Source of the DNA: a bacterium
GTDB lineage: Bacteria; Patescibacteriota; Minisyncoccia; Phycocordibacterales; GWA1-40-21
Direction: 5' to 3'
NCBI GenBank assembly: GCA_037131755.1
Contig: JBAXQJ010000005.1
Coordinates: 1-49,736, forward strand
Length of the DNA stretch: 49,736 nt
Below, piece after piece: positions 27,130 to 43,908 of the stretch. Within the stretch, counting starts at the first letter, position 1. Each line of letters starts with the position of its first letter. The notes beneath the pieces were generated by a model. It worked only from the letters and a program-made list of their open reading frames with translations. It had not been told where the DNA came from and did not search any database. A program made the translations under genes and the position numbers.

Positions 27130-27153
27130 TAGAACTTAGAACGTGGAACATAC

Positions 27154-27187
27154 AAAACCCCCGGTCGCTCACGCGACCGGGGGTTTT
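27154..27187 (-). terminator. Intrinsic terminator of LamG paralog 2
   Basis: aaaacccccggtcgc-tcac-gcgaccgggggtttt, a 15-bp perfect stem. Confidence 0.75.
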
Positions 27188-27218
27188 GTATGTTTGTTTT
27201 TTCTAAAATCTATTCCCG

Positions 27219-29978
27219 CTACCACCCAGCTTTTTCCATACCAGATCCAATAGCTGAACCAACACCGGCAACAGCAAGCCAAACAGCAGCAAGAGCTAAA
27301 CCACCACCGCCCAACGCTGCGACGGCAGCGGCACAAATAGGACAACCCACAACAAAGACTACCGCGACGACAACAACTACCGCAATCGTCTGCCATTGAT
27401 TTTTCTTCTTCGGCTTCATGCAGCTAATCGTCTCGATATTCCACTTTGTCGCCTTACCGGCAGCCGTCACTTGTTGACCGCCAGAGTTTGAGGAACAAGT
27501 ACTTTCACCACTAGCCGCCATAAGAGAAGTTCCCGAACCGGTATTGCCAACTACTGGTACTTTCATTCCTAAACCAGGCCAGAATTTCACCGCAATTGAA
27601 CCAGGGTTGAAATCGGCCGGAGTCTTGGAAGAAGAATTTGTCGAAGCGGTTGAAGTATACATATAAGAGGCTGGTCGATTCACCGCCGACACCACATCAG
27701 CTGGGGGATTGTCACAGGGCTGGATAATCGCTTCCTTGTATTGACCGCAAGACTGAACGCTTTTCACACTACCCTTGAAAGTAACTTCGTATTGATCAGT
27801 GGTACTGTCAGTTTCTTTTGGCATATAGCCGGCATCACAAGATTCTGGGAAATTCACATCACTACCCGCGACACCAGTGAGAGAGCCCTTGACCGCCGAT
27901 TTTGCGGTCGCATCTTCGATTATTTCTGACGTACCCTTGATCGCACCGTTGTTGCCATTACCCGTCATATCAGTCGCCAAACCATCATCAAAGGACCACT
28001 CGGCAACCAGGGCCGAAGCGCTTTGGCCAGCAACTGTGAAGGAAGCAGTGGTGGAAGTAGCCGTACTTGAAGACATATCGCTCACAATCTGGGTGGCCGT
28101 TCGAGCCGTATTCCAAATCTTCACATCATCGAGAGAACCAAGGAAACCATTGGTCTTGGTCGCATCCACATCACAAGCTTTGGGATAATAATTACCAATA
28201 TAGATATTGCTGGTATTAGAGACGGTACCACCTAGGCTGGTCCCAGTATTGGAACTAGTATTACCAGTGCTTGCGCTAGCGCCCCAACCACTGGAAGTAT
28301 TTGACGATGAACCCCAGCTACCGGTATTAGTATTGTTTGAACTAGTATTTCCAGACAACCAGCTATTTGAACCGCCGCTAGTACTGGTCGAAACGTATTC
28401 GGAGATCGAGTTAGACTTGTCGATTGAGGCTGCCTTGTTGAATACCCCACGGGTACCACCACAAAGGGTCGGGACGATCTTACCATCGACATACATATTC
28501 AAGATTCTGGTTGATTCATCGATCACGACCGCGACATTAGTCCATTTATTCAAGGATACGACCGGCGAACAAGACCAGGCCGCCGCATTATTGTTGCTAT
28601 AAACCAATTTTCCAGCATCCAAAGATAGGGCGTAATCCATATTTCCGCCAATATTGCCTTTAGAAATAATTACGGAATCATTGGTTCCAGCCAAGCCCGG
28701 AGTTGTGCGCCAAGCTGATGGCTTGACCCAAGCTTCAATAGTGACTTTGCTTTTGGTTTTCAAGCTATCTGACTCTTTAACTGAAACAATCCCCATACCA
28801 TCGGATGTATACAAGACTTTTTGGGTCAAACCGCCGTTTTCCGCCAGGGGAGTATCGGTTTGGAAGGTTTGTTCGTCAGTCAAGATACCCCGGCCGTTAG
28901 TATCAATGATAGCCAATTGAACATAATAGGTAGTATTTGGCTTCAAGTTCTTGATGGTAACTGAATGTGCGGTAGTTGTAGCTGTACCGGTGGCAACTTT
29001 GCTATCAGTAGCATTGGTTCGATATATCACTTGCATATTTGCCAAAACATCAGTTGTAGCAGTGATAGTTACATCTGTTCCACTGACCTGTGTATAAGAG
29101 TCTAAGATGTGAACGGTGGAGGAAGCTTGGATTTGCGCTGCACTCAACACAACATTCACTCCCACACTATCACTTACCGTACCACCAGAAGCTGTTTTAC
29201 AGTCTATACCATAATTTGCTGAGGTATTAACAACCACATCCTGGCTACCAGATAAAGATTTGGTGTTATTACCCGCTGAACACGAGGTCACATTGGCTGA
29301 TGTCCAAGAAAGAGTGATGGTGGCCCCAGGCGAGACAGAAACTGGACCATCTTGGCCATTCACCTTCAAATCAACCACCGAAGCTGAAGTCTGGGTCTGA
29401 GGTTGGGTCTGGTTATTTGGAATACAATTTACCGCCTGCAAGGCCAAAGTCGCCTTTTCCGGCGTAATCACATTGGAGACAATTAGGAGGTTCACAAACT
29501 GACAAATCTGCGAGCCGCTAGCTGTAGAACCCCCAGGAATAAGGCTATTTAGCTTAGTCCTAGTAGCTGGACCGACTTTACCGGTACCAGCCGAGAGGCT
29601 GTTTGGCGTCAAAATCTCGCTTCGATACTTTTCCTGGAATTTGATCACGGCTGCTTTGGTCGCCGGGCCAAAATAGTTAGATTCTTGGCCTTTTGAGCCA
29701 ATACCGGTAGGAGAAACGGCTGTATCAGTGCTGGCGTTTAGGAATTTTTGCAATTCCTTGACATCAGCATTGGTCTGACCAGACAGTAAATCATTTTGGA
29801 AGGTAAAACCGGTCGTGACTGAGCCTTGATAAGGATTGTTGGCCGGACTGGTTAAAGTCGTCGTCCCAACCGCTTGAGCGGAGGCTCGAGGAGTCAGAGC
29901 GGGATAGTAGGCAACAATCGAAACAAAAACAAAAATAAAGAGAATGGCCGAGCTAAAATATTTGTTATTAAATGACAT
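27219..29978 (-). CDS. PG-binding / Ig-like / LamG-domain giant surface protein with C-terminal membrane anchor (paralog 2)
   Basis: 919 aa with the same architecture as paralog 1 (DVKELQKFLN...YFGPATKAAVIKFQEKY; VTIEAWVKPSAWR...; GSLDDVKIWNTART). It adds a hydrophobic Gly/Ala/Val-rich C-terminus (TIAVVVVVAVVFVVGCPICAAAVAALGGGGLALAAVWLAVAGVG). Confidence 0.85.
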   Translation of the reverse strand: MSFNNKYFSSAILFIFVFVSIVAYYPALTPRASAQAVGTTTLTSPANNPYQGSVTTGFTFQNDLLSGQTNADVKELQKFLNASTDTAVSPTGIGSKGQESNYFGPATKAAVIKFQEKYRSEILTPNSLSAGTGKVGPATRTKLNSLIPGGSTASGSQICQFVNLLIVSNVITPEKATLALQAVNCIPNNQTQPQTQTSASVVDLKVNGQDGPVSVSPGATITLSWTSANVTSCSAGNNTKSLSGSQDVVVNTSANYGIDCKTASGGTVSDSVGVNVVLSAAQIQASSTVHILDSYTQVSGTDVTITATTDVLANMQVIYRTNATDSKVATGTATTTAHSVTIKNLKPNTTYYVQLAIIDTNGRGILTDEQTFQTDTPLAENGGLTQKVLYTSDGMGIVSVKESDSLKTKSKVTIEAWVKPSAWRTTPGLAGTNDSVIISKGNIGGNMDYALSLDAGKLVYSNNNAAAWSCSPVVSLNKWTNVAVVIDESTRILNMYVDGKIVPTLCGGTRGVFNKAASIDKSNSISEYVSTSTSGGSNSWLSGNTSSNNTNTGSWGSSSNTSSGWGASASTGNTSSNTGTSLGGTVSNTSNIYIGNYYPKACDVDATKTNGFLGSLDDVKIWNTARTATQIVSDMSSSTATSTTASFTVAGQSASALVAEWSFDDGLATDMTGNGNNGAIKGTSEIIEDATAKSAVKGSLTGVAGSDVNFPESCDAGYMPKETDSTTDQYEVTFKGSVKSVQSCGQYKEAIIQPCDNPPADVVSAVNRPASYMYTSTASTNSSSKTPADFNPGSIAVKFWPGLGMKVPVVGNTGSGTSLMAASGESTCSSNSGGQQVTAAGKATKWNIETISCMKPKKKNQWQTIAVVVVVAVVFVVGCPICAAAVAALGGGGLALAAVWLAVAGVGSAIGSGMEKAGW

Positions 29979-30047: not shown

Positions 30048-30126
30048 CATACAAATAGAACGTGAAGCTTCTTATTTCTGTCATCTTTACCTATTTCGCT
30101 CCGTCTTCACGAGAAGGCCTGGCGAC

Positions 30127-30183
30127 GAAGTGATCCAGGAATTAGAGTTCCTGGATTGCTTCACTTTGTTCGCAATGACAAAC
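30127..30183 (+). repeat. REP-like element, family GGATTGC-N-GCAATGACAAA
   Basis: 15-bp stem GAAGTGATCCAGGAA-ttagag-TTCCTGGATTGCTTC with two G:T pairs on the plus strand, followed by actttgttCGCAATGACAAAC. Confidence 0.65.
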
Positions 30184-30247
30184 GAAGACGATAATCAATT
30201 ATCAGGTTATTTTTCCCTAACACCTGATCCATGCTATAATTTCTACC

Positions 30248-31291
30248 ATGTTTAAAAAATATCTCCCTTCAAAAAAATTTATTATTGTCTTATCGTCCTT
30301 GGTTGTTGCTTTGATACTTATTTTTAGTTTCCAAGCAGCCACCGACTATCTTAAAAACAAGTCGGCTGTTCCAAATAATAAAAACCTCGCGCTCCAGACT
30401 TCTTTTAAAGAATTTATGGCCATCGACACCGATAAGGACGGCCTGCCAGACTGGGAAGAAGCCCTTTGGAAAACCGATCCGAAAAATCCGGACACCGATG
30501 GCGATGGAACATCAGATGGGGAAGAGGTAAAAGCCGGCCGGGATCCATTAAAAGCCAATACCGCCAAGGCCGGGCAGGAACCGAATGATAAAATCGATCC
30601 GCAAAAAATCGCCGCGGAAAAGAAAACCGTCCAAGAATATATTGATTTGTCAGCGACCGATAAACTGGCAAGAAGTTTGTTTTCTCAATACATCGCCACC
30701 AAAAAAGTCGGTCAAACAATGACCGAGAGCGACAAACAATATATCGTTCAGAATTTTATCGACAACCTGCCAAATCTGACTTACAAGGAATACACCCTCG
30801 GTGACCTTACGGTTCTTGGTACAAACACCACGGCGGAAGTCAAAAATTACGCCAACCAGGTCGCAGAAATACTATACAATAACTATCAAACAAAAACCGA
30901 TGACGTCTACACCATCATGTCGACTTATTTCAGCTCCGAAGATGCCGCCGCTCCAACTGCGCCCTTGCAAAAAATCCAGCCCATTATCGATAAAAATCTT
31001 AAAACAATCGCCAGCTTACTGAAAGTATCCGTACCAAACGAGGCAAAAAACGGCCACCTCTTGCTTGTAAACAGTTTCTATAAAATCACCCAGAATTTGC
31101 TGATATTGAGAGACGCCTCAAAAGACATTATGCTAACCCTATCTTCTTTGGAAAATTATGATGCCAATGTCACCAATCTTTCTTCGATATTGGATAATCT
31201 GGCCAACTACATCCAATCAAAGAAAATAAGTTTCGCTGCCACCGATTTTGGTTACAAATTATTTTATGATATAATTAATGGCAACAATTAA
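30248..31291 (+). CDS. Membrane-anchored protein with thrombospondin-type-3-like Ca-binding repeats
   Basis: 347 aa with an N-terminal TM and DTDKDGLPDWEE...DPKNPDTDGDGTSDGEE, followed by a helical domain of unknown family. TGcTATAAT ends 7 nt before the ATG. Confidence 0.7.
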   Translation: MFKKYLPSKKFIIVLSSLVVALILIFSFQAATDYLKNKSAVPNNKNLALQTSFKEFMAIDTDKDGLPDWEEALWKTDPKNPDTDGDGTSDGEEVKAGRDPLKANTAKAGQEPNDKIDPQKIAAEKKTVQEYIDLSATDKLARSLFSQYIATKKVGQTMTESDKQYIVQNFIDNLPNLTYKEYTLGDLTVLGTNTTAEVKNYANQVAEILYNNYQTKTDDVYTIMSTYFSSEDAAAPTAPLQKIQPIIDKNLKTIASLLKVSVPNEAKNGHLLLVNSFYKITQNLLILRDASKDIMLTLSSLENYDANVTNLSSILDNLANYIQSKKISFAATDFGYKLFYDIINGNN

Positions 31292-32996
31292 AATGTTTTC
31301 TAAAAGAAAAATTCTTCAAAAAACCCTTGGCTGTCTCCTGATCATCGGCCTTCTGCCGACCACTTTTGCTTTTGGCCAAACAGCCTCTGCTCCAGTCAAC
31401 ACCGCTCTTCCAACCGGTGTTGGTTATCCGACTTACGATTTTGGAACTGTCCACAACACCTGGGTTCTCGCGGGAATTCTTTCTGGCCAGCAGCCGGGTC
31501 AGCAGCAGGACAAAATCAGAATGACTGTCCCAAAACTGATCTTAAAAAGAATCTTGCGCGAACTAACAAAATCAATCACCACTTGGATTGACAACGGCTT
31601 TGAGGGTAATCCATCATTCGTAACAGATCCAAAAAAGTGGATAACGAATACAGCCGATATCACCGTCGGTGACTTTTTGTTGAATGACCCATCCCTAAGT
31701 TTCCTTTGTGATCCTTTTAAAATCCAAGTTAAATTGGCCCTTGGTCTTCAATACCAACCATTCAAAGAACAGATCAAATGTAGTTTTTCTGGTGCCTTGA
31801 ATAACACCAATCAAGCCTATAATAATTTCGTCAACGGCGATTTTATCAACGGGGGAGGCTGGGACTCTTGGTTAAAACTAACCACCGTACCACAGAACAA
31901 TCAGATGGGAGCCTCGATATTAGCTCAAGGAGAATTGGATGCGAGAATTGCCAATAACCAAGCCGCCGCTCAGACAGAATCGAGCTGGGGTAATGGTTTT
32001 ATGTCCTACAAGGAATGCACCAGGAAAACGACCGATGCTAGCGGAAAGGTCATCAGTACCGACACTTACCACGGTGATCCCACCACTCATCCGGCCAACG
32101 TTCCGCCCACGACGTCTATTACTAGGAATTTTGACCAATCAAACAGCACTTACACCGGCGTGACGACCGAAACCTGCGAAATCGTAACTCCGGGCTTGCA
32201 GATATTCCAAAAGCTTGGTTGGGCTGATAGCAGCACGATCAGAGAATTGGAATTGGCTGATGACATCAATGCCATCTTCACCGCCCTGGGAAACCAGCTC
32301 TTGACTTTGGGCATGGAGTCGCTCACCGGTGCCAAGAAAACCAAGACCAATGACAATTCGTACAACCAGTACATGGATTATCTGACCCAACAACAAGCCC
32401 AGCTGTCCTCACAAGGTATGTCTTACGACCCGTCAAATTATGGCAGTAATTTTTACTCCAGTAGCAACTCCGGTTCGTCATATCTAAATTCCAACAATGG
32501 AAAGAGTCAGGCTTTGGCCGCGGTAGAACAACAGAGAAATATCGAGATTGCTTATCAACAGAAAGTAAACGACGTTTTGAATTTACTCAACCAAGCCCGA
32601 GCCTCTTTTGCCGCCAAAACCGGCTGTAACAGCCTGATCCAAGACGCCGTGATCAATCGAATCGATGGGGTAGCCAGCAATTCCGGCAATCAGCTGTCTT
32701 TAAACAAGGTTACTCTGACCCAAGTCCTGACGACAACCGCCGGTAATATCTCCAAACTTGATGATTTGAAGAGCAATATTACTTCCGCTTCGAGCGACAC
32801 GGATTTTTCTCAAGTGGCTTCCGGTATCAGTGATGATGCTTCCTATCACAGCTCGACGGACAAATCCTACGAAACCACCGGTTCAAATTATCTTTTGATA
32901 AAAAACTGGCTGTCAGTGGCAAAAGACAGTTACAATAAGGACAACACCGGCCGACCAAATATGTGTACCGCCGATCTCAGTATGTGGGGAATATAG
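31278..32996 (+). CDS. Secreted hypothetical protein (S/N/Q-rich)
   Basis: 572-aa ORF with a signal-like N-terminus (LGCLLIIGLLPTTFAFGQTASA). The ATG at 31293, just after the upstream stop, is an equally plausible start. No family recognised. Confidence 0.65.
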   Translation: MATIKMFSKRKILQKTLGCLLIIGLLPTTFAFGQTASAPVNTALPTGVGYPTYDFGTVHNTWVLAGILSGQQPGQQQDKIRMTVPKLILKRILRELTKSITTWIDNGFEGNPSFVTDPKKWITNTADITVGDFLLNDPSLSFLCDPFKIQVKLALGLQYQPFKEQIKCSFSGALNNTNQAYNNFVNGDFINGGGWDSWLKLTTVPQNNQMGASILAQGELDARIANNQAAAQTESSWGNGFMSYKECTRKTTDASGKVISTDTYHGDPTTHPANVPPTTSITRNFDQSNSTYTGVTTETCEIVTPGLQIFQKLGWADSSTIRELELADDINAIFTALGNQLLTLGMESLTGAKKTKTNDNSYNQYMDYLTQQQAQLSSQGMSYDPSNYGSNFYSSSNSGSSYLNSNNGKSQALAAVEQQRNIEIAYQQKVNDVLNLLNQARASFAAKTGCNSLIQDAVINRIDGVASNSGNQLSLNKVTLTQVLTTTAGNISKLDDLKSNITSASSDTDFSQVASGISDDASYHSSTDKSYETTGSNYLLIKNWLSVAKDSYNKDNTGRPNMCTADLSMWGI

Positions 32997-33069
32997 CAGG
33001 TGACGGAAAAGAAAAAAGTGGACAAAAAATTAGCACTTGAATCGTTTTTGCGGTAGAATATAAGTTGAA

Positions 33070-35268
33070 ATGAAAATTAAATTTTCAAAATTTTTCACCC
33101 TGCTGACTATTTCAATAGTAGTCTTTTTGGGGTTATCTTTCTCCCCATACAATAGTACCAGAGCGATAGCTGGATCTATTTCAGATTGTTCATCTTTGGG
33201 TGGTGACAAAATATACACTTGCCAAGCTTATTACAGAGAAGTTCAAGGTGGTGCAAACTACGCGACGATTAATTTTAACGACGGAACAAAAATTAATGTA
33301 TTTCCTGATGGCAGTTCCATAAAATTCGATAAAAACGGCAATACAATTTCAAACACCGCTGATGGTTCAACAATGATATACAACCCCAATACAGGGAAGA
33401 CAGTAATAAAAGATTCCACTGGTAACATAAGAACCGAACAACTCACTGCCTCCGCGCCGGTTGAAGATCCATTCTTTTCAAATTGGCTGAAAGAAGCTGG
33501 TAAAATGGGTGGTTTAATCACTGGTGCTGTGGCAAAAACAGTTGCCATGGTTGTGGGAGGATTCCTCCAATTGATTTGGATTCCAACACTTTCAGCTTTA
33601 ATATATGTTGCTAGTTTTCTTGTTGATAAATCAGTCGAGTTCACTCTTTCTATTGGTTCCTTGGCGGGTATTGATTCTTCTGTAAATATTGCCTGGGTAA
33701 CGATCAGGAACGTTTTCAACATTTTCTTTATTTTTGCACTTTTGTACGCAGCTATTAAGATTATAATCGGGCAGACAGACAACAATTCAAAGAATATGCT
33801 TAAGAATGTCATCGTGGCTGCTCTCCTTATAAATTTCAGCCTATTTTTCACAAAGATTATTATTGATGCTGGAAACATTGTTGCGGCGGCCCTATATAAT
33901 TCACTAACCAACCAAGGAACTGTTGGTTTAGGATCATTATTAATGAAGGGTATGGGTATATCAGGACTATGGGGAGCAAGTGAAGCAAGTGTTGGCGGTG
34001 TTTTTAGCACATCATTCTTTATTATTTCCGCCGTACAAGCGACCACCCTACTTATAACTCTCGCCACCTTCATTTATATCGCTATATTATTTATTGTACG
34101 AACGGTTGGCCTAATATTTTTAATGGCCTTTTCACCAGTAGGTTTTATGGGTGATGTCTTGCCATTTATGGCTCCATATCAAAAAATGTGGCGCGACAAT
34201 TTATTTGGCCTAGTAGCAACTGCTCCAATCTTTTTACTTTTTACACAAATAATCGTGACGGTCTCTTCGCAAATGAAAGCGGCGATGGAAACTATGTCTA
34301 AAGAATCTGATGTGGCATACATTGCCTATTTTAAATATGCGATGGTAATAATATTACTAATTACCGCAGTTAAAGTCACCAAAAAATTCTCTGGCGCTGT
34401 TGGTTCATTTGTAGATGGCATAACCAAACTCGCCGTAGGCACAGCCGCTGGTGTTGCGACCGGGGGAGCGGCTTTGGCAATGAGAAAAGTAGTTGGTGGC
34501 AGTGCAGCAAAAATGGCCTCAAATGAAGATCTCAAAGCTCGAGCGGCAGCTGGTAGTATATCAGCCAGAATGCAGTTGGCAGCAGCAACTAAAGTATCAA
34601 AATCAAGCTTTGATGTTCGAAATGCCAATATTGCTGGCTTCAAACCAGGAGAGATGATCAGTAAACAAACCGGCTTTGATCTGAATGGTGGTCCGAAATT
34701 CACCCAGGTCGCCGACGGCGGTTATGCTGGGGCCCAAGATCGAGCCAAGAAAGCTCAGGCGGCAAGGATCAAAACTACCACAAACACCGATAGTGCAAAA
34801 GTTGATCCTTGGTCAGTAGATCAGAACCGTGTTGATAGTCATATAGCACAATTGAGACAAGATGCTCAAAATGACTTGGTAAATCATCAAACCGACAGAT
34901 CTCACAAGGAACAAGAATTTAATGACCCAAGAAAAACCAAAGACGAGAAAGACAAGATTGCCCAGGAAATTGCCGAATTAGACAAGAAGATTGCCAAAGC
35001 TCAACGCACAGCAAACTCAGCCAATGATCCGATTGCAACAGCCGAGCTCGAAGAACAGGCAAGAAAAAGTATTTCCAAGCAGGACTCAATAGACAAGGCA
35101 AAACAAAAAGAAAGAGAATTACTTAGTGGTGCACCATCCGAAGCCCACAAACAAGCAGCTGCGGCTTATAGGGCCTATGCAGCAGAACAGGAGAAGACAA
35201 AAACCACTGCGGATAAGACAAATGATCTTCTCCAACAACTTATTCAACAGAACCAACCTAAGCCATAA
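33070..35268 (+). CDS. TrbL/VirB6-like polytopic membrane protein with long charged C-terminal tail
   Basis: 732 aa with a signal/TM, a soluble domain of about 130 aa, at least 6 hydrophobic helices and a K/E/Q/A-rich tail of about 250 aa. The assignment rests on topology and on T4SS gene context. Confidence 0.6.
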   Translation: MKIKFSKFFTLLTISIVVFLGLSFSPYNSTRAIAGSISDCSSLGGDKIYTCQAYYREVQGGANYATINFNDGTKINVFPDGSSIKFDKNGNTISNTADGSTMIYNPNTGKTVIKDSTGNIRTEQLTASAPVEDPFFSNWLKEAGKMGGLITGAVAKTVAMVVGGFLQLIWIPTLSALIYVASFLVDKSVEFTLSIGSLAGIDSSVNIAWVTIRNVFNIFFIFALLYAAIKIIIGQTDNNSKNMLKNVIVAALLINFSLFFTKIIIDAGNIVAAALYNSLTNQGTVGLGSLLMKGMGISGLWGASEASVGGVFSTSFFIISAVQATTLLITLATFIYIAILFIVRTVGLIFLMAFSPVGFMGDVLPFMAPYQKMWRDNLFGLVATAPIFLLFTQIIVTVSSQMKAAMETMSKESDVAYIAYFKYAMVIILLITAVKVTKKFSGAVGSFVDGITKLAVGTAAGVATGGAALAMRKVVGGSAAKMASNEDLKARAAAGSISARMQLAAATKVSKSSFDVRNANIAGFKPGEMISKQTGFDLNGGPKFTQVADGGYAGAQDRAKKAQAARIKTTTNTDSAKVDPWSVDQNRVDSHIAQLRQDAQNDLVNHQTDRSHKEQEFNDPRKTKDEKDKIAQEIAELDKKIAKAQRTANSANDPIATAELEEQARKSISKQDSIDKAKQKERELLSGAPSEAHKQAAAAYRAYAAEQEKTKTTADKTNDLLQQLIQQNQPKP

Positions 35269-35276
35269 TTAAGTAA

Positions 35277-35978
35277 ATGGATGACCAATTTAAAAAAATA
35301 ATAGGGGAACAACTGATAAAAATTCCAGCTGACATAAAAGCGGCTATTGTTTCCATTGATTACAAAACAAAACTTCAGGAAATCACCAGACGACAGAAAC
35401 TTCTGATTGATCAAGCTGGCAGGCTGGAGACCGAGACAACTTTGGTGCTGCTTGGTCTAGAAAAACTTGGTGATTATGTCTCAAACCTTCAAAACGAACT
35501 CGGACTACCGATAATGCGGGCCAAAGAAGTATCTTTGGATGTCAGTGAAAACATCTTCAAACCGATTCGAGAATCATTGAGGCAGATGAATGAAGGTCTT
35601 AATGAAGAGGGTGGGGCACCAGCGACTGGCGTACCGGAAGAAGTTGCCTCCAGCCCGGAACGTAATAAAATTCTTAGCGAGATAGAAAATCCAAACACAA
35701 TTGGCCAAAACGGTTCGATGATGTTTACAAAAAATCCGACTCCAGCAACAGTAAACCCTGTACTAGTGGAAAAAAGTTCACCAATCATTCCAACGACTCC
35801 AAAAGAAAGCCTCTCAACTACAACAACAAAATCAGCCGGTGATTTGCTAGACGCCAAACTCAAAGATACCTTAATGATACCGAGAAACATTGTTGAGAAA
35901 AACGAAATCAGCAAGCTGCCGCCAGTCAACCGACCGCCATACAAAGGTTCGGATCCATACAAGGAACCAACGATCTAG
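35277..35978 (+). CDS. Hypothetical protein (no TM), T4SS-cluster associated
   Basis: 233-aa ORF in the same operon-like array. No family recognised. Confidence 0.55.
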   Translation: MDDQFKKIIGEQLIKIPADIKAAIVSIDYKTKLQEITRRQKLLIDQAGRLETETTLVLLGLEKLGDYVSNLQNELGLPIMRAKEVSLDVSENIFKPIRESLRQMNEGLNEEGGAPATGVPEEVASSPERNKILSEIENPNTIGQNGSMMFTKNPTPATVNPVLVEKSSPIIPTTPKESLSTTTTKSAGDLLDAKLKDTLMIPRNIVEKNEISKLPPVNRPPYKGSDPYKEPTI

Positions 35979-35999
35979 CCAGATTACTGAAAACAAAAC

Positions 36000-36419
36000 A
36001 TGAGATTTCAAGTCCCACAATTCATCGAAATAGAAGATAAGATTTTCGGACCACTGACAATCAAGCAGTTCATCTACTTGGCTGGTGGCGGCGGTTTGGC
36101 GTTCATCATCTTCCGCTTTTTGCCGCTAATGATAGCTATCCCTTTGATTATTGTCGCTATCGGCTTTTCCTTGCTCATGGCCTTCTATACCGTCAACAAC
36201 AAGCCTTTTATCGGTGTTGTTCAATCGGCAGTCACATATTTTTTCTCCAACAAGCTTTATCTTTGGAAAAAACAAGACCGAAAACCGATTTCCAAAACAG
36301 AACCAACCAACACAGAAAAAGCGGGCGGTCAGCTTTTCATTCCGAAATTATCCGATAGTAAGCTAAAGGACATCACCTGGAGCCTCGATATCAACGAAAC
36401 AGTGGGAGGGAAAGAGTAG
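36000..36419 (+). CDS. PrgI-family (VirB3-like) small membrane protein
   Basis: 139 aa. MRFQVPQFIEIEDKIFGPLTIKQFIYLAGGG is followed by two TM helices, which is the PrgI-family pattern. It sits upstream of VirB4, as in Gram-positive T4SS loci. Confidence 0.65.
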   Translation: MRFQVPQFIEIEDKIFGPLTIKQFIYLAGGGGLAFIIFRFLPLMIAIPLIIVAIGFSLLMAFYTVNNKPFIGVVQSAVTYFFSNKLYLWKKQDRKPISKTEPTNTEKAGGQLFIPKLSDSKLKDITWSLDINETVGGKE

Positions 36420-36493
36420 GGAGAAGTAGCTTCTTATGTTCATATAAAGTATAATAATAAGGAAACGAGAAGGAATTTTAATTTTTAATCTAC

Positions 36494-37132
36494 ATGGTAG
36501 TTGCCAAAGCCACCCAAGAATTTGTCCCGATCAAAGAAGTCCGGGATGGAATAGTCATCATGAAAGACGGCTCCATGCGAGCGGTAATCGCCGTATCGTC
36601 TTTAAACTTTGCCTTGAAATCAAACGATGAGAGGGAAGCCCTGATTTACCAATTCCAAAATTTCCTAAACTCCCTGGATTTTTCGGTTCAAATTTCCATC
36701 CAATCGCGTGCCTTGGATATCCGCCCTTATCTGGCCACTTTGGAAAAGCAATACAACGCCCAAATCAATGACTTGCTGAAAATACAGATCCGCGAGTATA
36801 TTTCTTTCGTCCGCAGCTTCACTGAGGAGGTGAATATCATGAGAAAAAGTTTCTATGTCGTCATTCCCTTTACCCCAACACTCCTAAATACCAAAAAGGA
36901 AGGGGGCTTGCTGTCATCGCTCGGTTTTGGGGCAAAAAACAAAACTAAAACGTCTGAAACAGACAGTTTCAATGAAAGCCGAACCCAGCTCGAACAGCGT
37001 CTAGGTGTTGTCCAGCAAGGTCTGCTCAGTTGTGGTCTCCGAAGCGCCCAATTAGGCACCGAAGAAATCGTCGAAGTCTTTTATAAGTTATTCAATCCGG
37101 GCAGCACGGAAAAGCCGATGCAGTTTCAATAA
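36494..37132 (+). CDS. Possible detached N-terminal module of VirB4-type ATPase
   Basis: 212 aa with EFVPIKEVRDGIVIMKDGSMRAVIAVSSLNFALKS.DERE. From memory, this pattern occurs at the N termini of long Gram-positive VirB4/PrgJ-type proteins. The ORF is separated from the ATPase ORF by 130 nt and a frame change. Confidence 0.45.
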   Translation: MVVAKATQEFVPIKEVRDGIVIMKDGSMRAVIAVSSLNFALKSNDEREALIYQFQNFLNSLDFSVQISIQSRALDIRPYLATLEKQYNAQINDLLKIQIREYISFVRSFTEEVNIMRKSFYVVIPFTPTLLNTKKEGGLLSSLGFGAKNKTKTSETDSFNESRTQLEQRLGVVQQGLLSCGLRSAQLGTEEIVEVFYKLFNPGSTEKPMQFQ

Positions 37133-37151
37133 AAACTCCGGTTGGCCGTCT

Positions 37152-37228
37152 TTGCGAGGAAGTGGCTGACGAAGCAAACCAGTAATTATAAAGATGGATT
37201 GCTTCGGGATTACCCTCGCAATGACAAA
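37152..37228 (+). repeat. REP-like nested hairpin, family GGATTGC-N-GCAATGACAAA
   Basis: TTGCGAGG...GAAGCAAACC-loop-GGATTGCTTC...CCTCGCAA-TGACAAAAC forms two nested inverted repeats. It lies between the 212-aa ORF and the VirB4 ATPase ORF. Confidence 0.65.
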
Positions 37229-37262
37229 ACAAAAGAACTGAAAGACTAAATATAAAAATACC

Positions 37263-39080
37263 ATGGGAATATTTGATTTTTTAAACAAAAAAAGCTCGAA
37301 AAAGGATGAACTAACCTCATTCTTGCCTCAAGAAATCTACGAGGCTGGCGTTTTGGAGTTGCAGGATGTGATCGCACCTTCAGCGCTCAAGATCAGCCCC
37401 AACCAAATCAATCTTGGCGAAAAGATCGCCCGAACTTTCTTTATCATTTCCTATCCGCGCTTTTTGACCGAAAGCTGGTTTGCACCAATCATCAACTTGG
37501 ACAAAGTTTTCAACGTCTCAATCTTCATTCACCCGATCGAAACGTCAAAGATCCTGCGCCAATTCCAAAAGAAAGTGGCCGAGGTGCAAAGCCAGATCAA
37601 CCAGCGGGAAAATAGGGGATTGGTGCGTGATCCGGTCTTGGATACCGCCTATCAAGACCTTGAGAGTTTGCGTGATAGTCTTCAGCAGGCGCAGGAGAAA
37701 CTTTTTGACGCTGGAATTTATCTAACCATTTATGGCGACAATGAAGACGATTTGAACAAGGTAGAGACGGAGATGAAAACCATTTTGGAATCCAAACTCG
37801 TCTATATCAAACCGGCTCTTTTCCAACAAGAACAAGGCTATAAGAGCATCCTGCCGACCTGCGATGACCAGCTTTTGGTTCACTCAAAATTAAATTCTTC
37901 GCCGCTTTCCAGCATTTTCCCATTTATTTCTTTCGACCTCACCCAAGAAAAAGGTATTCTCTATGGTATCAACCGACACAACAACAGCTTGGTTTTGTTT
38001 GATCGTTTTTCCCAAGATAACTACAATTCCGTCACCTTTGCCAAGGCTGGTTCCGGTAAATCCTACGCGGCCAAGCTGGAAATATTGAGAACCTTGATGT
38101 TTGATGTCGATGTGATCGTGATCGACCCGGAAAATGAATTCCACTATCTCGCCGAGGCTGTTGGTGGAAAAGTATTTAACATTTCCTTGAACTCGGAGAG
38201 TCATATCAATCCATTTGAACTGCCGCACCCACGCGAAGACGAGGCACCATCAGATGTTTTGCGTTCCAACATCATCAACTTGGTGGGAATGTTCCGAATC
38301 ATGTTTGGTGGTCTCACTCCAGAGGAGGATGCGATCATCGATCGAGCGATCACCGAGACTTATGCTTTGAAAGATATTACCCCAGAATCTGATTTTGTGA
38401 ATTTGGAGCCACCGCTTTTGTCGGACTTTGAATTGGTCTTATCTGGAATGGAAGGGGCGGAGAGTCTGGCGCAAAAACTGTCAAAATTCACCCGCGGTTC
38501 CTGGTCTGGCTTTATCAATCGTCCATCAACCGTCGACATCGACGCCAAGTTCGTCGTGTTCTCGATCCGTGATATGGAAGATGAACTTCGTGCTGTCGCG
38601 ATGTATATCATCACGCACTTCATCTGGACAGCGATCAGAAAAGTAAAGAAGAAGCGATTATTGGTGGTGGATGAAGCGTGGGTGATGATGCGTTCTGACG
38701 ATGCCGCTTCTTTCCTTTTTGGTATTGCTAAACGCTGTCGTAAATACTGGCTGGGTCTCGCGACTATTACCCAAGACGTCGACGACTTTTTGAATTCACC
38801 TTATGGTATGCCGATTGTGACCAACTCATCGATCCAAATCCTGCTCAAACAATCGCCATCAACAGTGGAACACCTGAAAGAAGTTTTCAACCTGACCGAG
38901 GACGAGAAATTCCTGTTATTGGAGTCAGATGTGGGTGAGGGACTATTCTTTGTCGGCCAGAAACATGTGGCAATCAAGATCAAAGCTTCATATACTGAGG
39001 ATCAAATCATCACTTCCGACCCATCACAGCTCTTGGCAATTCAGCGCTCAAGAGAAGAACTACAGGCAAGTCAGAACTAG
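37263..39080 (+). CDS. VirB4/TraE-type T4SS ATPase
   Basis: 605 aa with Walker A AKAGSGKSYAAK, Walker B RLLVVDEAW, and the N-terminal pattern IAPSALKISPNQINLGEKIARTFFIISYPRFL, typical of the family. Confidence 0.85.
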   Translation: MGIFDFLNKKSSKKDELTSFLPQEIYEAGVLELQDVIAPSALKISPNQINLGEKIARTFFIISYPRFLTESWFAPIINLDKVFNVSIFIHPIETSKILRQFQKKVAEVQSQINQRENRGLVRDPVLDTAYQDLESLRDSLQQAQEKLFDAGIYLTIYGDNEDDLNKVETEMKTILESKLVYIKPALFQQEQGYKSILPTCDDQLLVHSKLNSSPLSSIFPFISFDLTQEKGILYGINRHNNSLVLFDRFSQDNYNSVTFAKAGSGKSYAAKLEILRTLMFDVDVIVIDPENEFHYLAEAVGGKVFNISLNSESHINPFELPHPREDEAPSDVLRSNIINLVGMFRIMFGGLTPEEDAIIDRAITETYALKDITPESDFVNLEPPLLSDFELVLSGMEGAESLAQKLSKFTRGSWSGFINRPSTVDIDAKFVVFSIRDMEDELRAVAMYIITHFIWTAIRKVKKKRLLVVDEAWVMMRSDDAASFLFGIAKRCRKYWLGLATITQDVDDFLNSPYGMPIVTNSSIQILLKQSPSTVEHLKEVFNLTEDEKFLLLESDVGEGLFFVGQKHVAIKIKASYTEDQIITSDPSQLLAIQRSREELQASQN

Positions 39081-39092
39081 CTTTTTTGTCAT

Positions 39093-39201
39093 ACCTACCC
39101 CCAATTACCTTTTTAGAGCACGGATATTTTCTTACTAGAAAATTCCTCGAGTTCGGCTCAGTCAGCCTCACTAGTCTCTAAAAAGGCAATTAGGGGTAGG
39201 T
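39093..39201 (+). repeat. Structured intergenic element (copy B)
   Basis: The core 39110-39184 is nearly identical to copy A. The outer stem acctacccccaattacc / ggcaattaggggtaggt is locus-specific and is followed by TTTTT. It starts 13 nt after the VirB4 stop. Confidence 0.8.
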
Positions 39202-39253
39202 TTTTGAGTTCTATGTTTAACGTTTTATTTCTATATGCTATAATATTTGCAGT

Positions 39254-40270
39254 ATGAAAAAAACATTTTTCTTCTCATTTTTATTTACCCTACTGATCAT
39301 TGGGGTGTTACCGGCCCTTTCTTCGGCTCAAACGACAAACACTGCCACGCCAAACTTAAACGACCAATTTTTACAAATTTCCCTCTCGCCAGACAATCCG
39401 GAACCGGGTCAAAATTATTCGGCCACAATTTCCAGTTATGTTTTTGACCTAGACCGCTCTACCATCAGGTGGTATGTGAACGGCCAACTTAAAAAAGAGG
39501 GTAGCGGCTTGAAGGTTTTTTATGATCAGGCGGGCAAGAGCGGGGTGGCAACCGTCATTAGGGCAGTGGCAACAACCCAAGACAACCAGACATCGGAGAT
39601 AAGCGCGACGATTGTTCCAGCTAGCGTTGATTTGATTTACGAGGCCTACTCATACGTCCCACCCTTTTATAAAGGCAAAGCCTTGAATGTAAACCAAGGT
39701 TCGGTCATTTTAGCTGCCATTCCGAATATTATGCAAAACGGAACGAAAATTGCCGCTCAAAAACTGGTTTATACCTGGAAAAAAGACGGCACTGTCCAAG
39801 GGTCTTTTTCCGGGGTCGGGAAGAACACCTTCAGCTTCAACGGTTCCGTTCCGATTCGTGATGTGGAAATAGAAGTGTCTGTTTCCTCGCCGGACAATTC
39901 CGTGACCGCCAGCAAATCCCTGACCGTGCCTTTTGTCTCGCCTAAAATACTTTTCTATGAAGATAGCCCCGTCTATGGGACAATGTTCAACCGTGCCATC
40001 ACCCAGACCGTCGGCCTATTGACTGATGAATTTTCCGTCAAGGCTTTTCCATATTTTTTCAGCGCCGGTTTTCCTCAAAGCTCAAATTTGATTTACAATT
40101 GGACGATGAATGGGCAGGGGATTGAGACCCCCGCTGTACCAAACCTCGTCACCTTCCGCCAAGATACGCCCGGTGCCGGCAATGCGAATGTAGGCCTAAA
40201 AATCAGCAACACTGCCAGAATTTTCCAATTTGTTGAAAATAACTTTAGTATCCTATTCCAAAAACAATAA
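39254..40270 (+). CDS. Secreted beta-rich hypothetical protein
   Basis: 338 aa with signal peptide MKKTFFFSFLFTLLIIGVLPALSSA. TGcTATAAT ends 9 nt before the ATG. No family recognised. Confidence 0.65.
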   Translation: MKKTFFFSFLFTLLIIGVLPALSSAQTTNTATPNLNDQFLQISLSPDNPEPGQNYSATISSYVFDLDRSTIRWYVNGQLKKEGSGLKVFYDQAGKSGVATVIRAVATTQDNQTSEISATIVPASVDLIYEAYSYVPPFYKGKALNVNQGSVILAAIPNIMQNGTKIAAQKLVYTWKKDGTVQGSFSGVGKNTFSFNGSVPIRDVEIEVSVSSPDNSVTASKSLTVPFVSPKILFYEDSPVYGTMFNRAITQTVGLLTDEFSVKAFPYFFSAGFPQSSNLIYNWTMNGQGIETPAVPNLVTFRQDTPGAGNANVGLKISNTARIFQFVENNFSILFQKQ

Positions 40271-40271
40271 T

Positions 40272-40655
40272 ATGAAAAAATTACTAACCGTCAAAATCTT
40301 ATCCTTAATAATACTCAGTGTTGTCTTTATTCTGCCTCAATTCACCGTCTTGGCTTTGAATTATGTTCCTCTCGAAAAAAACGCCTTCCCGGGAGTTACC
40401 TTCAATGAAGGAACCAAACTAAACACCTTTCTCTCCCAATCTTTCCAGTTTGGCCTGGCTTTGGCCGCTATTTTGGCTGTGGTGATGATCATTTGGGGTG
40501 GGGTGGAGACAATGCTGTCTGAATCGGTCTTTTCCAAAGACTCCGGCAAGACAAAAATTAAAGATGCTTTGTATGGCTTAGGTCTGGCCTTGGTTTCTTG
40601 GCTTATTCTTTACACCATCAATCCGGAAATACTTAATTTTAAGCTTACCCAATAA
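40272..40655 (+). CDS. TrbC/VirB2-like T4SS pilin candidate
   Basis: Trimmed to the Met at 40272 (MKKLLTVKILSLIILS...). It has a signal peptide plus two hydrophobic helices separated by a short polar loop, and is 127 aa. Confidence 0.6.
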   Translation: MKKLLTVKILSLIILSVVFILPQFTVLALNYVPLEKNAFPGVTFNEGTKLNTFLSQSFQFGLALAAILAVVMIIWGGVETMLSESVFSKDSGKTKIKDALYGLGLALVSWLILYTINPEILNFKLTQ

Positions 40656-40656
40656 T

Positions 40657-41895
40657 ATGAGCAAAAAAAACGCCATTCTTTTGATCCTTACCGTCTTCAT
40701 TGGTTTTTTGGCCGCTCTGATTTGGTTTTATTTTAATGCCAATACCCCCTCGGCCAACACAAATACGATTGTCACGACCGGTGACGTCTACGACCCGTTT
40801 GGACTAGGGAACAGAGGTGGGAGCACCAGCCCAGCCACCACTACTTCCGAACAGCCGGTAGTCAATACTCCCGTCACCCAACCTCTTCTCCGAAAAATAT
40901 CCAGCGATCCGGTCTCTGGTTCCATTATTTTTAACAGCAACGCTCGAACCGACATCCGTTATATCCTGCGAGCCAATGGCAACATCTATGAAACCTATAC
41001 CGACTCAACCGAATCAAAAAGAATTTCCAACACCACCATTCCCAAAGTCTATGAGAGCAACTGGCTGCCAAATGGCCAGAATTTGATCATCCGCTATCTC
41101 AAAGATGTCGCCGATGTTATTCAGAGTTTTTCAGTGGAAATAAAAATCGCCACTACTACCGGTAATGAATTTGAGGGGGGGGTCGATGGCATGTTCCTGC
41201 CAGAAAATATTTCACAACTGGCCATCAACCCGCTTGGTGACAAAGTTTTCTATCTGATTTCTGATTTGAACGGCTCTTCCGGCTACATTACCAAAACCAA
41301 TGGTTCCAACAAAAAACTGCTGTTCCAATCGCCGCTTATCGAATGGCAGGTCAGCTGGCCGAAAGAAGACTACATCACTTTCACCACCAAGCCTTCGGCC
41401 AAGACAATCGGTTATATGTACTTCTTAAATACCAAAACTGGCAGTTTTGACCGGGTTATCGGTGACATCGCCGGTCTCACCACCAACACCAATCCAACCG
41501 CCACCAAAATACTTTACTCGGACAGTTCGGCTGGTCTGCCAAAAATTTATCTTTACGATGTGAAGAAAGCTGAAAGCAAGATGCTGCCATGGAATACCTT
41601 GCCAGAGAAATGCGCCTGGGACAAAAACGACGACAAAAATATTTACTGTGCCGTACCAAACCAATTTGGAGAAGGGGACTATCCTGACGCCTGGTATCAA
41701 GGTTTGGTCAGTTTCACTGATTCGATTTGGAAATATGATCAGACGACCGGCGCAACAACTCAGGTTGCCAACCTTAAAAATCTAGCTAACTTGAACATCG
41801 ACGCAACTGACCTTAAAATATCCGGCGCCGGAGACTATATGACCTTTGTCAATAAAACCGATTTGAGTTTTTGGGGACTGAAAATCACACCTTAG
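40657..41895 (+). CDS. N-terminally anchored protein with beta-propeller-like C-terminal region
   Basis: 412 aa with one N-terminal TM, a T/P-rich linker and repeated beta-strand-rich segments. The family is not recognised, and the TolB-like fold is only a guess. Confidence 0.55.
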   Translation: MSKKNAILLILTVFIGFLAALIWFYFNANTPSANTNTIVTTGDVYDPFGLGNRGGSTSPATTTSEQPVVNTPVTQPLLRKISSDPVSGSIIFNSNARTDIRYILRANGNIYETYTDSTESKRISNTTIPKVYESNWLPNGQNLIIRYLKDVADVIQSFSVEIKIATTTGNEFEGGVDGMFLPENISQLAINPLGDKVFYLISDLNGSSGYITKTNGSNKKLLFQSPLIEWQVSWPKEDYITFTTKPSAKTIGYMYFLNTKTGSFDRVIGDIAGLTTNTNPTATKILYSDSSAGLPKIYLYDVKKAESKMLPWNTLPEKCAWDKNDDKNIYCAVPNQFGEGDYPDAWYQGLVSFTDSIWKYDQTTGATTQVANLKNLANLNIDATDLKISGAGDYMTFVNKTDLSFWGLKITP

Positions 41896-41915
41896 AACAT
41901 AGAGTTTAAAATACT

Positions 41916-41950
41916 AAAGACAGGTTTCGGTTTGGCCGAAACCTGTCTTT
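41916..41950 (+). terminator. Intrinsic terminator ending the T4SS-like cluster
   Basis: aaagacaggtttcgg-tttgg-ccgaaacctgtcttt followed by attt. Confidence 0.7.
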
Positions 41951-41961
41951 ATTTTAATCTA

Positions 41962-42069
41962 CTGCCCCCTCAATTACTTTTTTAGAGACTAGCGAGCGCG
42001 ACGGCGCGAGCTCGAGGAATTTTCTAGCAAGAAAATATCCGTGCTCTAAAAAGGTAATTGAGGGGGCAG
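41962..42069 (-). repeat. Structured intergenic element (copy C, inverted orientation)
   Basis: The same core in reverse orientation. The outer stem ctgccccctcaattac / gtaattgagggggcag is perfect. The internal second hairpin is replaced by a different GC hairpin (GCGC-N4-GCGC instead of GGCT-N5-AGCC). It lies 25 nt downstream of the jag stop, in the sense orientation. Confidence 0.8.
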
Positions 42070-42093: not shown

Positions 42094-42558
42094 TTAAATC
42101 GCCAAATATTTCACCACTACCCGTCTCGTTTTACCCTCGCCGATCGATTCGGTACTGATGTCCGGCTTTCCAGCAAGAACGCTGTGAACCACCATCCTTT
42201 CATAAGAGGACATCGGGTCCATTTCCACGTCCGTCTTGAGGCTTGTGGCCTGCTCTGCGGCATTCAAAGCCTTCATCTTGATCCGATTATCAGCCTCTGA
42301 TTGCTGATTATTTATATCAATCGTGCATTTAAACAAATCATCGCCCGGCTTGGCATCCTTATTGAAGATTCTTTTCATTACAAAAACGAAATCTTTGTAA
42401 TAATCATCCCTTCCACGGGCTAAATTTTCAAAATCAGCGCTTAAAATAGAAAAAGTATGTCCTCTTTTTTCATCATGAGCATATTGCACGCTTTCCACCA
42501 CCACCCCCATCAGAGCTAGCGTATCCTCGATAATTTTTTTGGCTTTTTCTGCATCCAT
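42094..42558 (-). CDS. jag: Jag/KhpB-like RNA-binding protein (KH + R3H)
   Basis: 154 aa with the C-terminal R3H pattern MDPMSSYERMVVHSVL...GEGKTRRVVVK. It sits downstream of yidC, as in the canonical operon. Confidence 0.8.
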   Translation of the reverse strand: MDAEKAKKIIEDTLALMGVVVESVQYAHDEKRGHTFSILSADFENLARGRDDYYKDFVFVMKRIFNKDAKPGDDLFKCTIDINNQQSEADNRIKMKALNAAEQATSLKTDVEMDPMSSYERMVVHSVLAGKPDISTESIGEGKTRRVVVKYLAI

Positions 42559-42605
42559 AGTGTTTATAAATTATTATTCGGTCACCAAACCGCTTAGTAA
42601 ACAAA

Positions 42606-43328: not shown

Positions 43329-43394
43329 TCCGACATTCTACCCCAGATATCATATTTTTTCCAGCTGGTTTTGGTGTTAGTTATAAATCTTACA

Positions 43395-43494
43395 TTTTAA
43401 GAGCACGGATATTTTCTTGCCTGCCTCACCGACTCATCAAGGCGGGCTAGAAAATTCCTCTATCATTCCCGCGCAGGCGGGAATGACGGCTAGT
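43395..43494 (+). repeat. Structured intergenic element (copy D, divergent; antisense to the rnpA-yidC operon)
   Basis: TTTTAAGAGCACGGATATTTTCTTGC...CTAGAAAATTCCTC is retained. Hairpin 1 is extended by GCCTGCC/GGCGGGC, and hairpin 2 is replaced by CATTCCCGC-GCAG-GCGGGAATG. The 3-prime CTAG overlaps the rnpA stop codon. Confidence 0.7.
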
Positions 43495-43828: not shown

Positions 43829-43908
43829 CTTTTTTTTAACTTAATTTAACCTAATTATACAACAAAACGGACTTTCGTCCGTTTAATTATACACTTTTTA
43901 GTTTAAAA

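Follow-up and report, generated by a model that had tools for sequence, protein, structure and literature searches.

A ten-gene type IV secretion system cluster beside the replication origin region of a Patescibacteriota genome, with a probable non-conjugative role

The stretch of DNA analysed here (the window; 49,736 nt, contig JBAXQJ010000005.1 of assembly GCA_037131755.1, lineage Patescibacteriota; Minisyncoccia; Phycocordibacterales; GWA1-40-21) contains a cluster of type IV secretion system (T4SS) genes that consists of ten ORFs, o1 to o10, all on the plus strand and packed tightly over positions 30248-41895. An original prediction, made from the sequence of the window, had described this co-oriented and tight arrangement correctly but had counted eleven ORFs with gaps of 1-130 nt, while the successive gaps from o1 to o10 are in fact -14, 73, 8, 21, 74, 130, 173, 1, and 1 nt. 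The genes are organised in two units, the platform genes (encoding PrgI, TrsD with VirB4, and an extended VirB6/TrbL) and a probably separately promoted group of o8, the pilin gene o9, and o10, together with three further conserved lineage-specific partners, namely o1 (calcium-binding and anchored), o2 (secreted), and o4 (cytoplasmic). Our analyses indicate that the cluster is very probably a T4SS or pilus machine that was derived from monoderm (MPF_FATA) conjugation machinery and repurposed for a non-conjugative function.

Five of the ten products could be assigned to T4SS components. The product of o7 (37263-39080) corresponds to the C-terminal two thirds of a VirB4 ATPase of the MPF_FATA/CD1110 type; it matched NF045971 (the CD1110 family; CTn2, monoderm MPF_FATA) with 359.8 bits against a cutoff of 325, and its Walker motifs are intact (Walker A, AKAGSGKS, at residue 260; Walker B, LLVVDE, at residue 466). 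The o6 product (36494-37132), which had been thought to be unassignable, is TrsD, which is homologous to the N-terminal domain of VirB4 but encoded by a gene of its own: it matched NF041427 (TrsD, 2.8e-6), NF045975 (5.3e-12), and NF045971 (1.2e-6), the matches to full-length VirB4 models lying at their N-terminal positions. Since o6 covers positions 103-233 of the full-length VirB4 model NF045975 and o7 covers positions 274-893, the N-domain homologue and the ATPase body of VirB4 are two polypeptides. The trsD gene adjoins virB4 in all 41 relatives compared below, and hydropathy revealed no hydrophobic segment in o6, which is thus predicted to be cytoplasmic. The product of o5 (36000-36419) is a PrgI/VirB3-like protein (PF12666, 36.9 bits, cutoff 27, E 5.4e-9) with a two-helix membrane hairpin (predicted transmembrane segments at 24-67), and that of o9 (40272-40655) is a VirB2-like T4SS pilin of 127 aa with a signal peptide and two hydrophobic helices, which matched PF18895 (T4SS_pilin; 33.7 bits, cutoff 26.6, E 3.7e-8) and NF045849 (2.7e-4). 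PrgI, VirB4, and the pilin, all of which had been named beforehand, therefore lie above their family cutoffs. In many relatives the pilin is longer, with 200-350 additional aa at its C-terminus that look rich in coiled coil (for instance L043:13748-15199, L029:8175-9275, and L046:13466-14713). The o3 product (33070-35268), which had also been expected to be VirB6/TrbL-like, is polytopic; its predicted topology comprises a signal or anchor segment, an outside domain of ~115 aa, several transmembrane helices, and a cytoplasmic tail of 292 aa rich in Ala, Lys, and Gln. The window o3 itself has no Pfam match, but it can be identified as an extended VirB6, because 9 of 40 orthologues matched TrbL/VirB6 (PF04610, best 1.9e-7). 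A comparison by hhalign with a single sequence, VirB6 of pTi, gave a marginal local match at a conserved SP..F.G...W segment (pairwise E 0.0044).

The conservation of the cluster was analysed by searching for VirB4 relatives in one genome per species. Of the 564 found, the best 80 loci were used, which comprised one identical fragment and 79 sequences at 74-85% identity to o7; the named records among the relatives are metagenome-assembled genomes of Patescibacteria labelled Paceibacterota, Parcubacteria, Taylorbacteria, or Minisyncoccia, and some are loosely labelled Saccharibacteria. The identical fragment (L001; CAZSZH010000134.1, 1762 nt, 100% identical to o7) is in a bin labelled 'uncultured Flavobacterium sp.' and is probably a mis-binned Patescibacteria contig. 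In the 41 loci that had full 10-kb flanks, each from a different species, the order uvrD-ksgA-[o1...o10]-yidC-rnpA-dnaA-dnaN and the strand were the same, so that the comparison of synteny across related small genomes, which had been proposed as a check, returned one order and one position throughout. Seven of the ten genes, including o2, o5, o6, o8, and o10, were detected in all 41 loci, and detection by tblastn was lower for the pilin gene o9 (33 loci), o1 (32), and o4 (29). Median identity was 76% for VirB4, 59% for TrsD, and 56% for PrgI, in comparison with 28-34% for the envelope-exposed partners. These patterns point to a long-resident chromosomal operon under constraint. Such collinearity of all ten genes, at a single place in the chromosome across 41 species-level genomes, indicates vertical inheritance rather than spread as a mobile element.

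Functions associated with conjugative transfer were looked for in the window and in the cluster. Neither a VirD4- or TcpA-type type IV coupling protein (T4CP) nor a MOB relaxase domain was found among the ORFs of the 50-kb window that were scanned or read; the claim that the window lacks both holds for these ORFs, although 50 kb are too little to say that the genome has no coupling protein. The ten ORFs had no Pfam or NCBIfam match to VirB1, VirB8, VirB9, VirB10, VirB11, T4CP, or relaxase families, and the partner proteins gave no match to VirB1, VirB8, VirB9, VirB10, or VirB11 either when 40 orthologues were scanned member by member against Pfam or when profiles were searched against PDB sequences. 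Profiles of o1, o2, o4, and o8 likewise failed to match VirB8-like proteins (PrgL/TcpC/TraM, NTF2-like) in Pfam and among PDB sequences, and no domain of a VirB1-like hydrolase was present in the ten ORFs. The absence of VirB8 and of a VirB1-type hydrolase from the cluster was thus borne out by the Pfam, NCBIfam, and orthologue profile searches that had been proposed at the outset. None of the matches to PDB sequences obtained with the orthologue profiles was significant. A LysM-M23 peptidase is encoded at 20045-21208, which is 9 kb from the cluster, and only 7 of the 41 relatives have it in the vicinity of the cluster.

The locus is already known: it is the published chromosomal, origin-proximal T4SS of Patescibacteria, and what is new here is only an incremental annotation of conserved partner genes and of the promoter architecture in a Paceibacteria-like lineage. 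No new kind of system is proposed; rather, Paceibacteria-like genomes carry a fixed ten-gene cassette with five conserved partners and a probably separately promoted pilus module. In a survey of Patescibacteria T4SSs (Quinonero-Coronel et al. 2025; PMC12102498), most of the VirB4 proteins form a distinct monophyletic clade related to MPF_FATA, TrsD is the commonest associated component, and PrgI/VirB3, VirB6, and VirB2-like pilins are encoded near virB4. According to the same survey, VirB8 and VirB1 homologues are scarce, relaxases occur in only 103 genomes, and of the 5,713 VirD4-like proteins found across 2,918 Patescibacteria genomes just 148 are encoded close to virB4; the virB4 neighbourhood in Paceibacteria and Microgenomatia is rich in dnaA, dnaN, rnpA, ksgA, and rpmH, and it was concluded that the T4SS has been co-opted for non-conjugative functions, possibly import. 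In a 2025 review (PMC12857230), the Patescibacteria T4SS is regarded as an established new branch within the T4SS superfamily. By transposon sequencing, Wang et al. 2023 (PMC10633639) found that epibiotic growth requires the Saccharibacteria T4SS (S. epibionticum SEML1_0006-0019) and its pilins, and noted that this T4SS has no coupling protein or relaxase; comEC is not essential for epibiotic growth in Saccharibacteria according to the transposon sequencing literature (PMC10633639; PMC12857230). In a 2026 preprint on a cultivated member feeding on the RNA of its host, cryo-EM revealed tubular structures, possibly T4SS pili, which reach the host envelope. The Patescibacteria T4SS is the current best candidate for the machine by which this very large radiation lives at the expense of other microbes, and in the one genetically tractable member it is essential.

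The cluster shares with the Patescibacteria clade an MPF_FATA-type VirB4, a separate TrsD, PrgI/VirB3, VirB6, and a VirB2-like pilin, as well as the lack of a nearby relaxase or T4CP, a chromosomal position beside dnaA, dnaN, rnpA, rpmH, and ksgA, and the monoderm, ultrasmall lineage of its carrier. It differs in having a single pilin gene, whereas arrays of 2-11 genes are common in Saccharimonadia and Microgenomatia, and in having no peptidase or lysozyme gene after virB4; in addition, o1, o2, o4, o8, and o10 are not among the components named in the portions of the survey considered here. With the monoderm MPF_FATA systems (pCF10 Prg/Pcf, CTn2, pGO1 Trs, and ICEBs1) it has in common a CD1110-family VirB4, PrgI, a VirB6-like protein, and the lack of a VirB7/9/10 core, and TrsD is present as in pGO1. 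Unlike those systems, the cluster contained no detectable T4CP, relaxase, VirB8-like protein (PrgL/TcpC), or VirB1-like hydrolase, has a VirB2-like pilin, which is generally said to be absent there, and is fixed in the chromosome instead of being mobile. The proteobacterial VirB/Trb systems (MPF_T) and the Bacteroides CTnDOT type (MPF_B) also have a VirB2-like pilin, TrbL is matched by o3 orthologues, and a candidate minor-pilin-like gene is followed by the VirB6 gene, as in virB5-virB6, trbJ-(trbK)-trbL, and traI-traJ. In contrast to both, the cluster has no outer-membrane complex and no VirB11, and o2 is more than twice the size of VirB5/TrbJ and has at most a short N-terminal motif in common with them. 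The H. pylori ComB, archaeal Ced, Bordetella Ptl, and Brucella VirB systems are similar in that they lack a coupling protein and relaxase and serve DNA import or protein export and not conjugation, but they have other component sets and envelope types, and the only sequence link to them is the generic VirB4 P-loop.

The partner proteins were less obscure than the original prediction had supposed; its statement that many of them cannot be assigned was an overstatement, since one is TrsD and three others have fold-level assignments. The o1 product (30248-31291) has a predicted N-terminal membrane anchor (transmembrane segment at residues 5-33), bacterial TSP3 calcium-binding repeats, as had been anticipated (PF18884, 1.2e-10), and a C-terminal domain of ~220 aa. 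TSP3 was the sole Pfam family found among o1 orthologues (24 of 40), and neither did the o1 profile match any PDB sequence nor did the C-terminal domain fall into any family. The conserved N-terminal domain (~110 aa) of the o4 product (35277-35978) is joined by a variable, Pro-rich linker to a DPY[RK]E peptide at the C-terminus, and the protein had no match in Pfam or among PDB sequences when 40 orthologues were scanned member by member and the profile was searched. Hydropathy revealed no hydrophobic segment in it; o4 is thus predicted to be cytoplasmic, so that for both o4 and o6 the earlier description as secreted or membrane-anchored proteins was mistaken. The DPY[RK]E motif is invariant, was found in 59 of the 80 related loci, and is confined to the ORF directly upstream of prgI; it may be a docking motif.

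The o8 product (39254-40270) is predicted to be secreted, based on its signal peptide, and to consist of three tandem Ig-like/PKD-like beta-sandwich repeats of ~105 aa each. A W-x-x-[ND]-G motif occurs once per repeat, at residues 73, 175, and 283, and among 40 orthologues BiPBP_C was matched by seven (1.2e-6), PKD_3 by three, and Ig_3 by three. The o10 product (40657-41895) has a predicted N-terminal transmembrane helix, a disordered linker, and an extracytoplasmic beta-propeller. Its AlphaFold2 model (mean predicted local distance difference test score, pLDDT, 85.9; predicted template modelling score, pTM, 0.77) gave TolB, WD40 propellers, and oligogalacturonate lyase as the top Foldseek matches (E ~1e-10), no T4SS component was among the 50 best Foldseek matches, and weak TolB matches were obtained when o10 orthologues were scanned member by member against Pfam. 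The size and topology of o10 had suggested a TcpC/VirB8-like bitopic protein, which was ruled out by the modelled propeller; judging from the model, o10 is a membrane-anchored beta-propeller and not a VirB8, VirB9, or VirB10. In a distant subclade, in which VirB4 is at most 77% identical to o7, an extra gene lies between virB4 and o8 in a gap of ~440-560 nt (for example in L022, L023, and L033). Its product is polytopic, ~135-160 aa long, with the motif ADLLSLIPFVG...IAExIP..Q.LP and a Pro/Arg-rich tail; neither the window nor any of its 17 closest relatives has the gene, and there was no tblastn match to it anywhere in the window.

The remaining partner, o2 (31278-32996), encodes a secreted protein of 572 aa with conserved cysteines, a candidate for a pilus-associated protein of the VirB5/TraI type to which a large novel body has been fused. 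Its family is very large and unnamed: the family profile retrieved 5,671 representative clusters at 50% identity, 3,244 of them at E <= 1e-30. When 42 distant members of the family were scanned, DUF4141 (PF13605) was matched by six (best 8.4e-10), of which only P0282 scored above the Pfam cutoff (38.6 bits, cutoff 30), and one member matched two TrbJ models at E 2e-4. The DUF4141 match spans residues ~19-60, which correspond to the end of the signal peptide and the mature N-terminus AQW-V-x-D-x-x-N-x-x-Q. The position of the gene is in keeping with such a relationship, as o2 precedes the VirB6-like o3 in all 41 relatives, and this order resembles that of virB5-virB6 of pTi and of trbJ-trbK-trbL. 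Furthermore, in conjugative transposons of B. thetaiotaomicron a DUF4141 gene is located between traG (VirB4) and traJ (VirB6-like) and would, by gene order, be traI, and TraI of CTnDOT has been reported as a VirB5 homologue (Guglielmini et al. 2014).

Several results weigh against this assignment. The shared segment is short, N-terminal, and overlaps the signal peptide, and the window o2 has no family match of its own and a diverged N-terminus. Profile comparison was negative: hhalign found nothing between the o2 family and VirB5 of pTi, with a positive control (o3 versus VirB6) that was itself marginal, and nothing between the o2 family and TrbJ, where the shallow TrbJ alignment (85-94% identity) did not make a fair test. 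Structure prediction with fold search, which had been recommended for such proteins, succeeded for o10 as described above but not for o2, whose AlphaFold2 model is poor (pLDDT 64.8, pTM 0.37), mostly helical with a confident C-terminal helical bundle at 405-552, and without any Foldseek match at E < 0.6. We therefore take the VirB5-like nature of o2 as a tentative lead only, with the balance slightly against it. If it is true, o2 would provide a tip or nucleator for the proposed monoderm T4SS pilus as well as a testable host-recognition determinant. Seven of the 42 distant family members (among P0202-P0300) have extra F5/8 type C domains (galactose-binding-like, lectin) and two have bacterial Ig-like surface domains, which fit a variable, possibly host-binding, distal part.

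The expression of the cluster appears to start at two sites. The original prediction that o1 and o8 share an extended -10 box proved correct: TGCTATAAT is found at 30232-30240, 7 nt before the ATG of o1, and at 39236-39244, as the end of a putative internal promoter (39217-39244, plus strand; TTAACG, 16 nt, TG-n-TATAAT) that terminates 9 nt before the ATG of o8. The window contains three matches to TGCTATAAT, against 0.35 expected, and each is 3-9 nt upstream of an ORF start; the third (9006-9014, minus strand) precedes by 3 nt the TTG listed as start codon for the recombinase gene discussed below. Among relatives, an extended -10 box within 40 nt upstream of the o8 start was present in 43 of 68, mostly 4-10 nt before it, and a TGnTAnwAT-like box within 40 nt of the start of the o1 orthologue in 13 of 44, while such boxes did not occur upstream of the pilin gene or o10 and were seldom seen upstream of most other cluster genes. 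The o8-pilin-o10 group therefore probably has its own conserved promoter that gives rise to a leaderless or near-leaderless mRNA, and the o1 transcript is probably leaderless or near-leaderless as well. Because the three boxes abut ORF starts and because motifs resembling a Shine-Dalgarno sequence are nearly absent upstream of cluster genes in relatives, it is suggested that leaderless translation is common in this lineage. The operon is closed by a bidirectional terminator with a perfect 16-bp stem (41915-41951).

How these components might work together can be outlined from established T4SS biology. VirB3 would tether VirB4 and TrsD to the VirB6 platform, and VirB4/TrsD would power extraction and polymerisation of the VirB2-like pilin via the VirB6/VirB3 platform. 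It could be speculated that o2, as a VirB5-like protein, nucleates or caps the filament on VirB6, and that o1, o8, and o10 guide the filament through the wall or contact the host cell. The machine may serve an epibiotic lifestyle, that is, host attachment or penetration and macromolecule transfer instead of conjugative DNA export, and what is transferred could be exported protein or imported host nucleic acid. A more specific proposal would be that o1, o2, o4, o8, and o10 are the missing specific parts of this T4SS, in which the o2 family is a tip or nucleator with host-binding extensions, o8 and o10 form a module that spans the wall or contacts the host, the o4 peptide docks to TrsD/VirB4, and the whole is a conduit for the uptake of macromolecules such as RNA from the host; taken together, this is rather unlikely. 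With respect to the repurposed, non-conjugative T4SS itself, which was also the function proposed originally and which is supported by the content of the window, the collinearity in 41 genomes, and the published interpretation, three points tell in the opposite direction. A distal VirD4-like T4CP, which is common in the phylum, may be encoded outside the 50-kb window; the envelope-spanning model is incomplete, as no VirB8-like or VirB1-like component was identified; and the experiments were carried out in Saccharimonadia and in one further cultivated strain and not in this lineage.

A rival interpretation would be that the cluster is a decayed or cryptic remnant of an integrative and conjugative element (ICE) from which the relaxase, the coupling protein, and the integrase have been lost. 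In its favour, o7 exceeds the cutoff of the CD1110 family of ICE/CTn2, the PrgI, TrsD, and VirB6 set is that of monoderm conjugative elements, and a gene for a XerC/D-type tyrosine recombinase is present in the window (8013-9002, minus strand). Nevertheless, an ICE or an ICE remnant is argued against because the position is fixed, the gene order conserved, and the genes intact across many species, with identical position and order in 41 of them and strong conservation of VirB4, TrsD, and PrgI. The GC content across the cluster (42-46%) is the same as that of its neighbours, without any compositional shift, and with this flat composition and the fixed position between ksgA and yidC in 41 species no element boundaries are indicated. 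The original prediction had denied a boundary integrase; a recombinase does exist, but it is 21 kb off, behind the housekeeping genes for PNPase, uvrD, and ksgA, and nothing suggests that it marks a boundary. Similarly, inverted repeats resembling nic sites had been reported as absent, and inverted repeats are in fact present in the cluster, but their identity as oriT or nic sites was ruled out, as they belong to two families of dispersed intergenic repeats. In the published phylogeny, most VirB4 proteins of Patescibacteria fall into a single distinct, monophyletic clade (PMC12102498), which is also unfavourable to a remnant, and we consider this origin highly improbable.

If the cluster is a working, repurposed T4SS, then nucleic-acid import, protein export, and an adhesive filament are alternatives within the same machine. 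The import of host DNA or RNA by a ComB/Ced-like machine, which would supply the epibiont with nucleotides, was proposed in the 2025 survey (PMC12102498), and is compatible with the lack of a T4CP and relaxase, neither of which is needed by import systems, with the absence of nucleotide synthesis in the phylum, with the uptake of host RNA by a cultivated member, possibly via T4SS-like tubes, with a weak similarity of o7 to CedB (5.8e-7) and CedD (1e-4), and with a PNPase gene in the window (14119-16254). However, the similarity to CedB and CedD is limited to the generic P-loop region, and the cluster has no evident component that would bind nucleic acid or act as a nuclease, which makes import possible but doubtful. 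Export of effector proteins, or their contact-dependent injection into the host cell, would be in line with the suggestion of Wang et al. that the lack of a coupling protein and relaxase may point to protein export (PMC10633639), and effector systems without a T4CP exist in Ptl and Brucella VirB; it seems somewhat less probable still, as neither within nor beside the conserved cassette is there a candidate effector or chaperone gene, the giant LamG proteins described below not being conserved neighbours. Alternatively, the machine may produce only an adhesive or structural surface filament, without substrate translocation. The pilin module probably has its own conserved promoter, VirB4 alone is established to energise pilus biogenesis (PMC4027160), and extracytoplasmic partners with Ig-like, beta-propeller, and calcium-binding parts would suit adhesion, yet type IV pili already serve adhesion in Patescibacteria, and the fact that both the T4SS and type IV pili are essential in Saccharibacteria suggests non-redundant roles; of these three, we regard a filament without transport as the least likely.

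The surroundings of the cluster are a typical replication-origin region. On its 3' side, jag, yidC, rnpA, and rpmH are encoded on the minus strand (42094-44046), followed by dnaA and dnaN on the plus strand from ~44209, and the minimum of the cumulative GC skew is at ~44-46 kb. The cluster had been placed about 4 kb from dnaA; it is indeed close, but the distance from its end is ~2.3 kb. Its transcription runs toward the presumed origin, so that it would be on the lagging strand and head-on to replication, and the GC skew of the plus strand is negative there; the orientation with respect to dnaA is kept in all 41 relatives. On the 5' side are uvrD, ksgA, and, between ksgA and the cluster, two paralogous PG_binding_1 plus Laminin_G_3 surface proteins of 892 and 919 aa (24383-29978, minus strand, divergent from the cluster). 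These LamG-type giants are directly upstream of the cluster in the window, as had been noted, but the adjacency is not conserved. They look like a lineage-specific insertion, because a match to them at the locus was found in only 10 of the 41 relatives, over only ~91 aa, and because ksgA is much nearer to o1 in most relatives, as judged by median offsets. Their role as conserved partners of the T4SS was ruled out, since they are not adjacent to it in most of the 41 relatives.

Two repeat families are dispersed in the intergenic regions. A palindromic repeat of ~109 nt, Family A, with arms of 26 nt (CCCCC..AATTACCTTTTTAGAG) and a conserved centre of 57 nt, is located between virB4 and the pilus module (39093-39201), and other copies are found at 41962-42069 and 17571-17651, as is an incomplete one at 43390-43460. 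Its core is 81-93% identical in loci of other species (L072, L008, L046, L075, L020, and L067) whose proteins are far more diverged. Rfam gave no real match, there being no Rfam family for this repeat, which may represent a MITE-like element or a structured RNA that has been conserved. The second repeat, Family B, is ~95 nt long with a hairpin (GAAG..CCAG / TGGATTGCTTC); one copy (37140-37235) fills the gap between trsD and virB4, and another, 77% identical to it, is upstream of o1 (30100-30195). The spacer of 130 nt between trsD and virB4 is unusual, the median in relatives being 5 nt with the genes near abutting, and is accounted for by this copy. One weak match to Family B was found among the related loci, in L006. 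Elsewhere in the window, three sizeable ORFs have no Pfam match, at 9175-11211 (plus strand, 678 aa), 16257-17555 (plus strand, 432 aa), and 5097-6059 (minus strand, 320 aa), of which the 432-aa product has a predicted central transmembrane segment and the 320-aa product is predicted to be polytopic.

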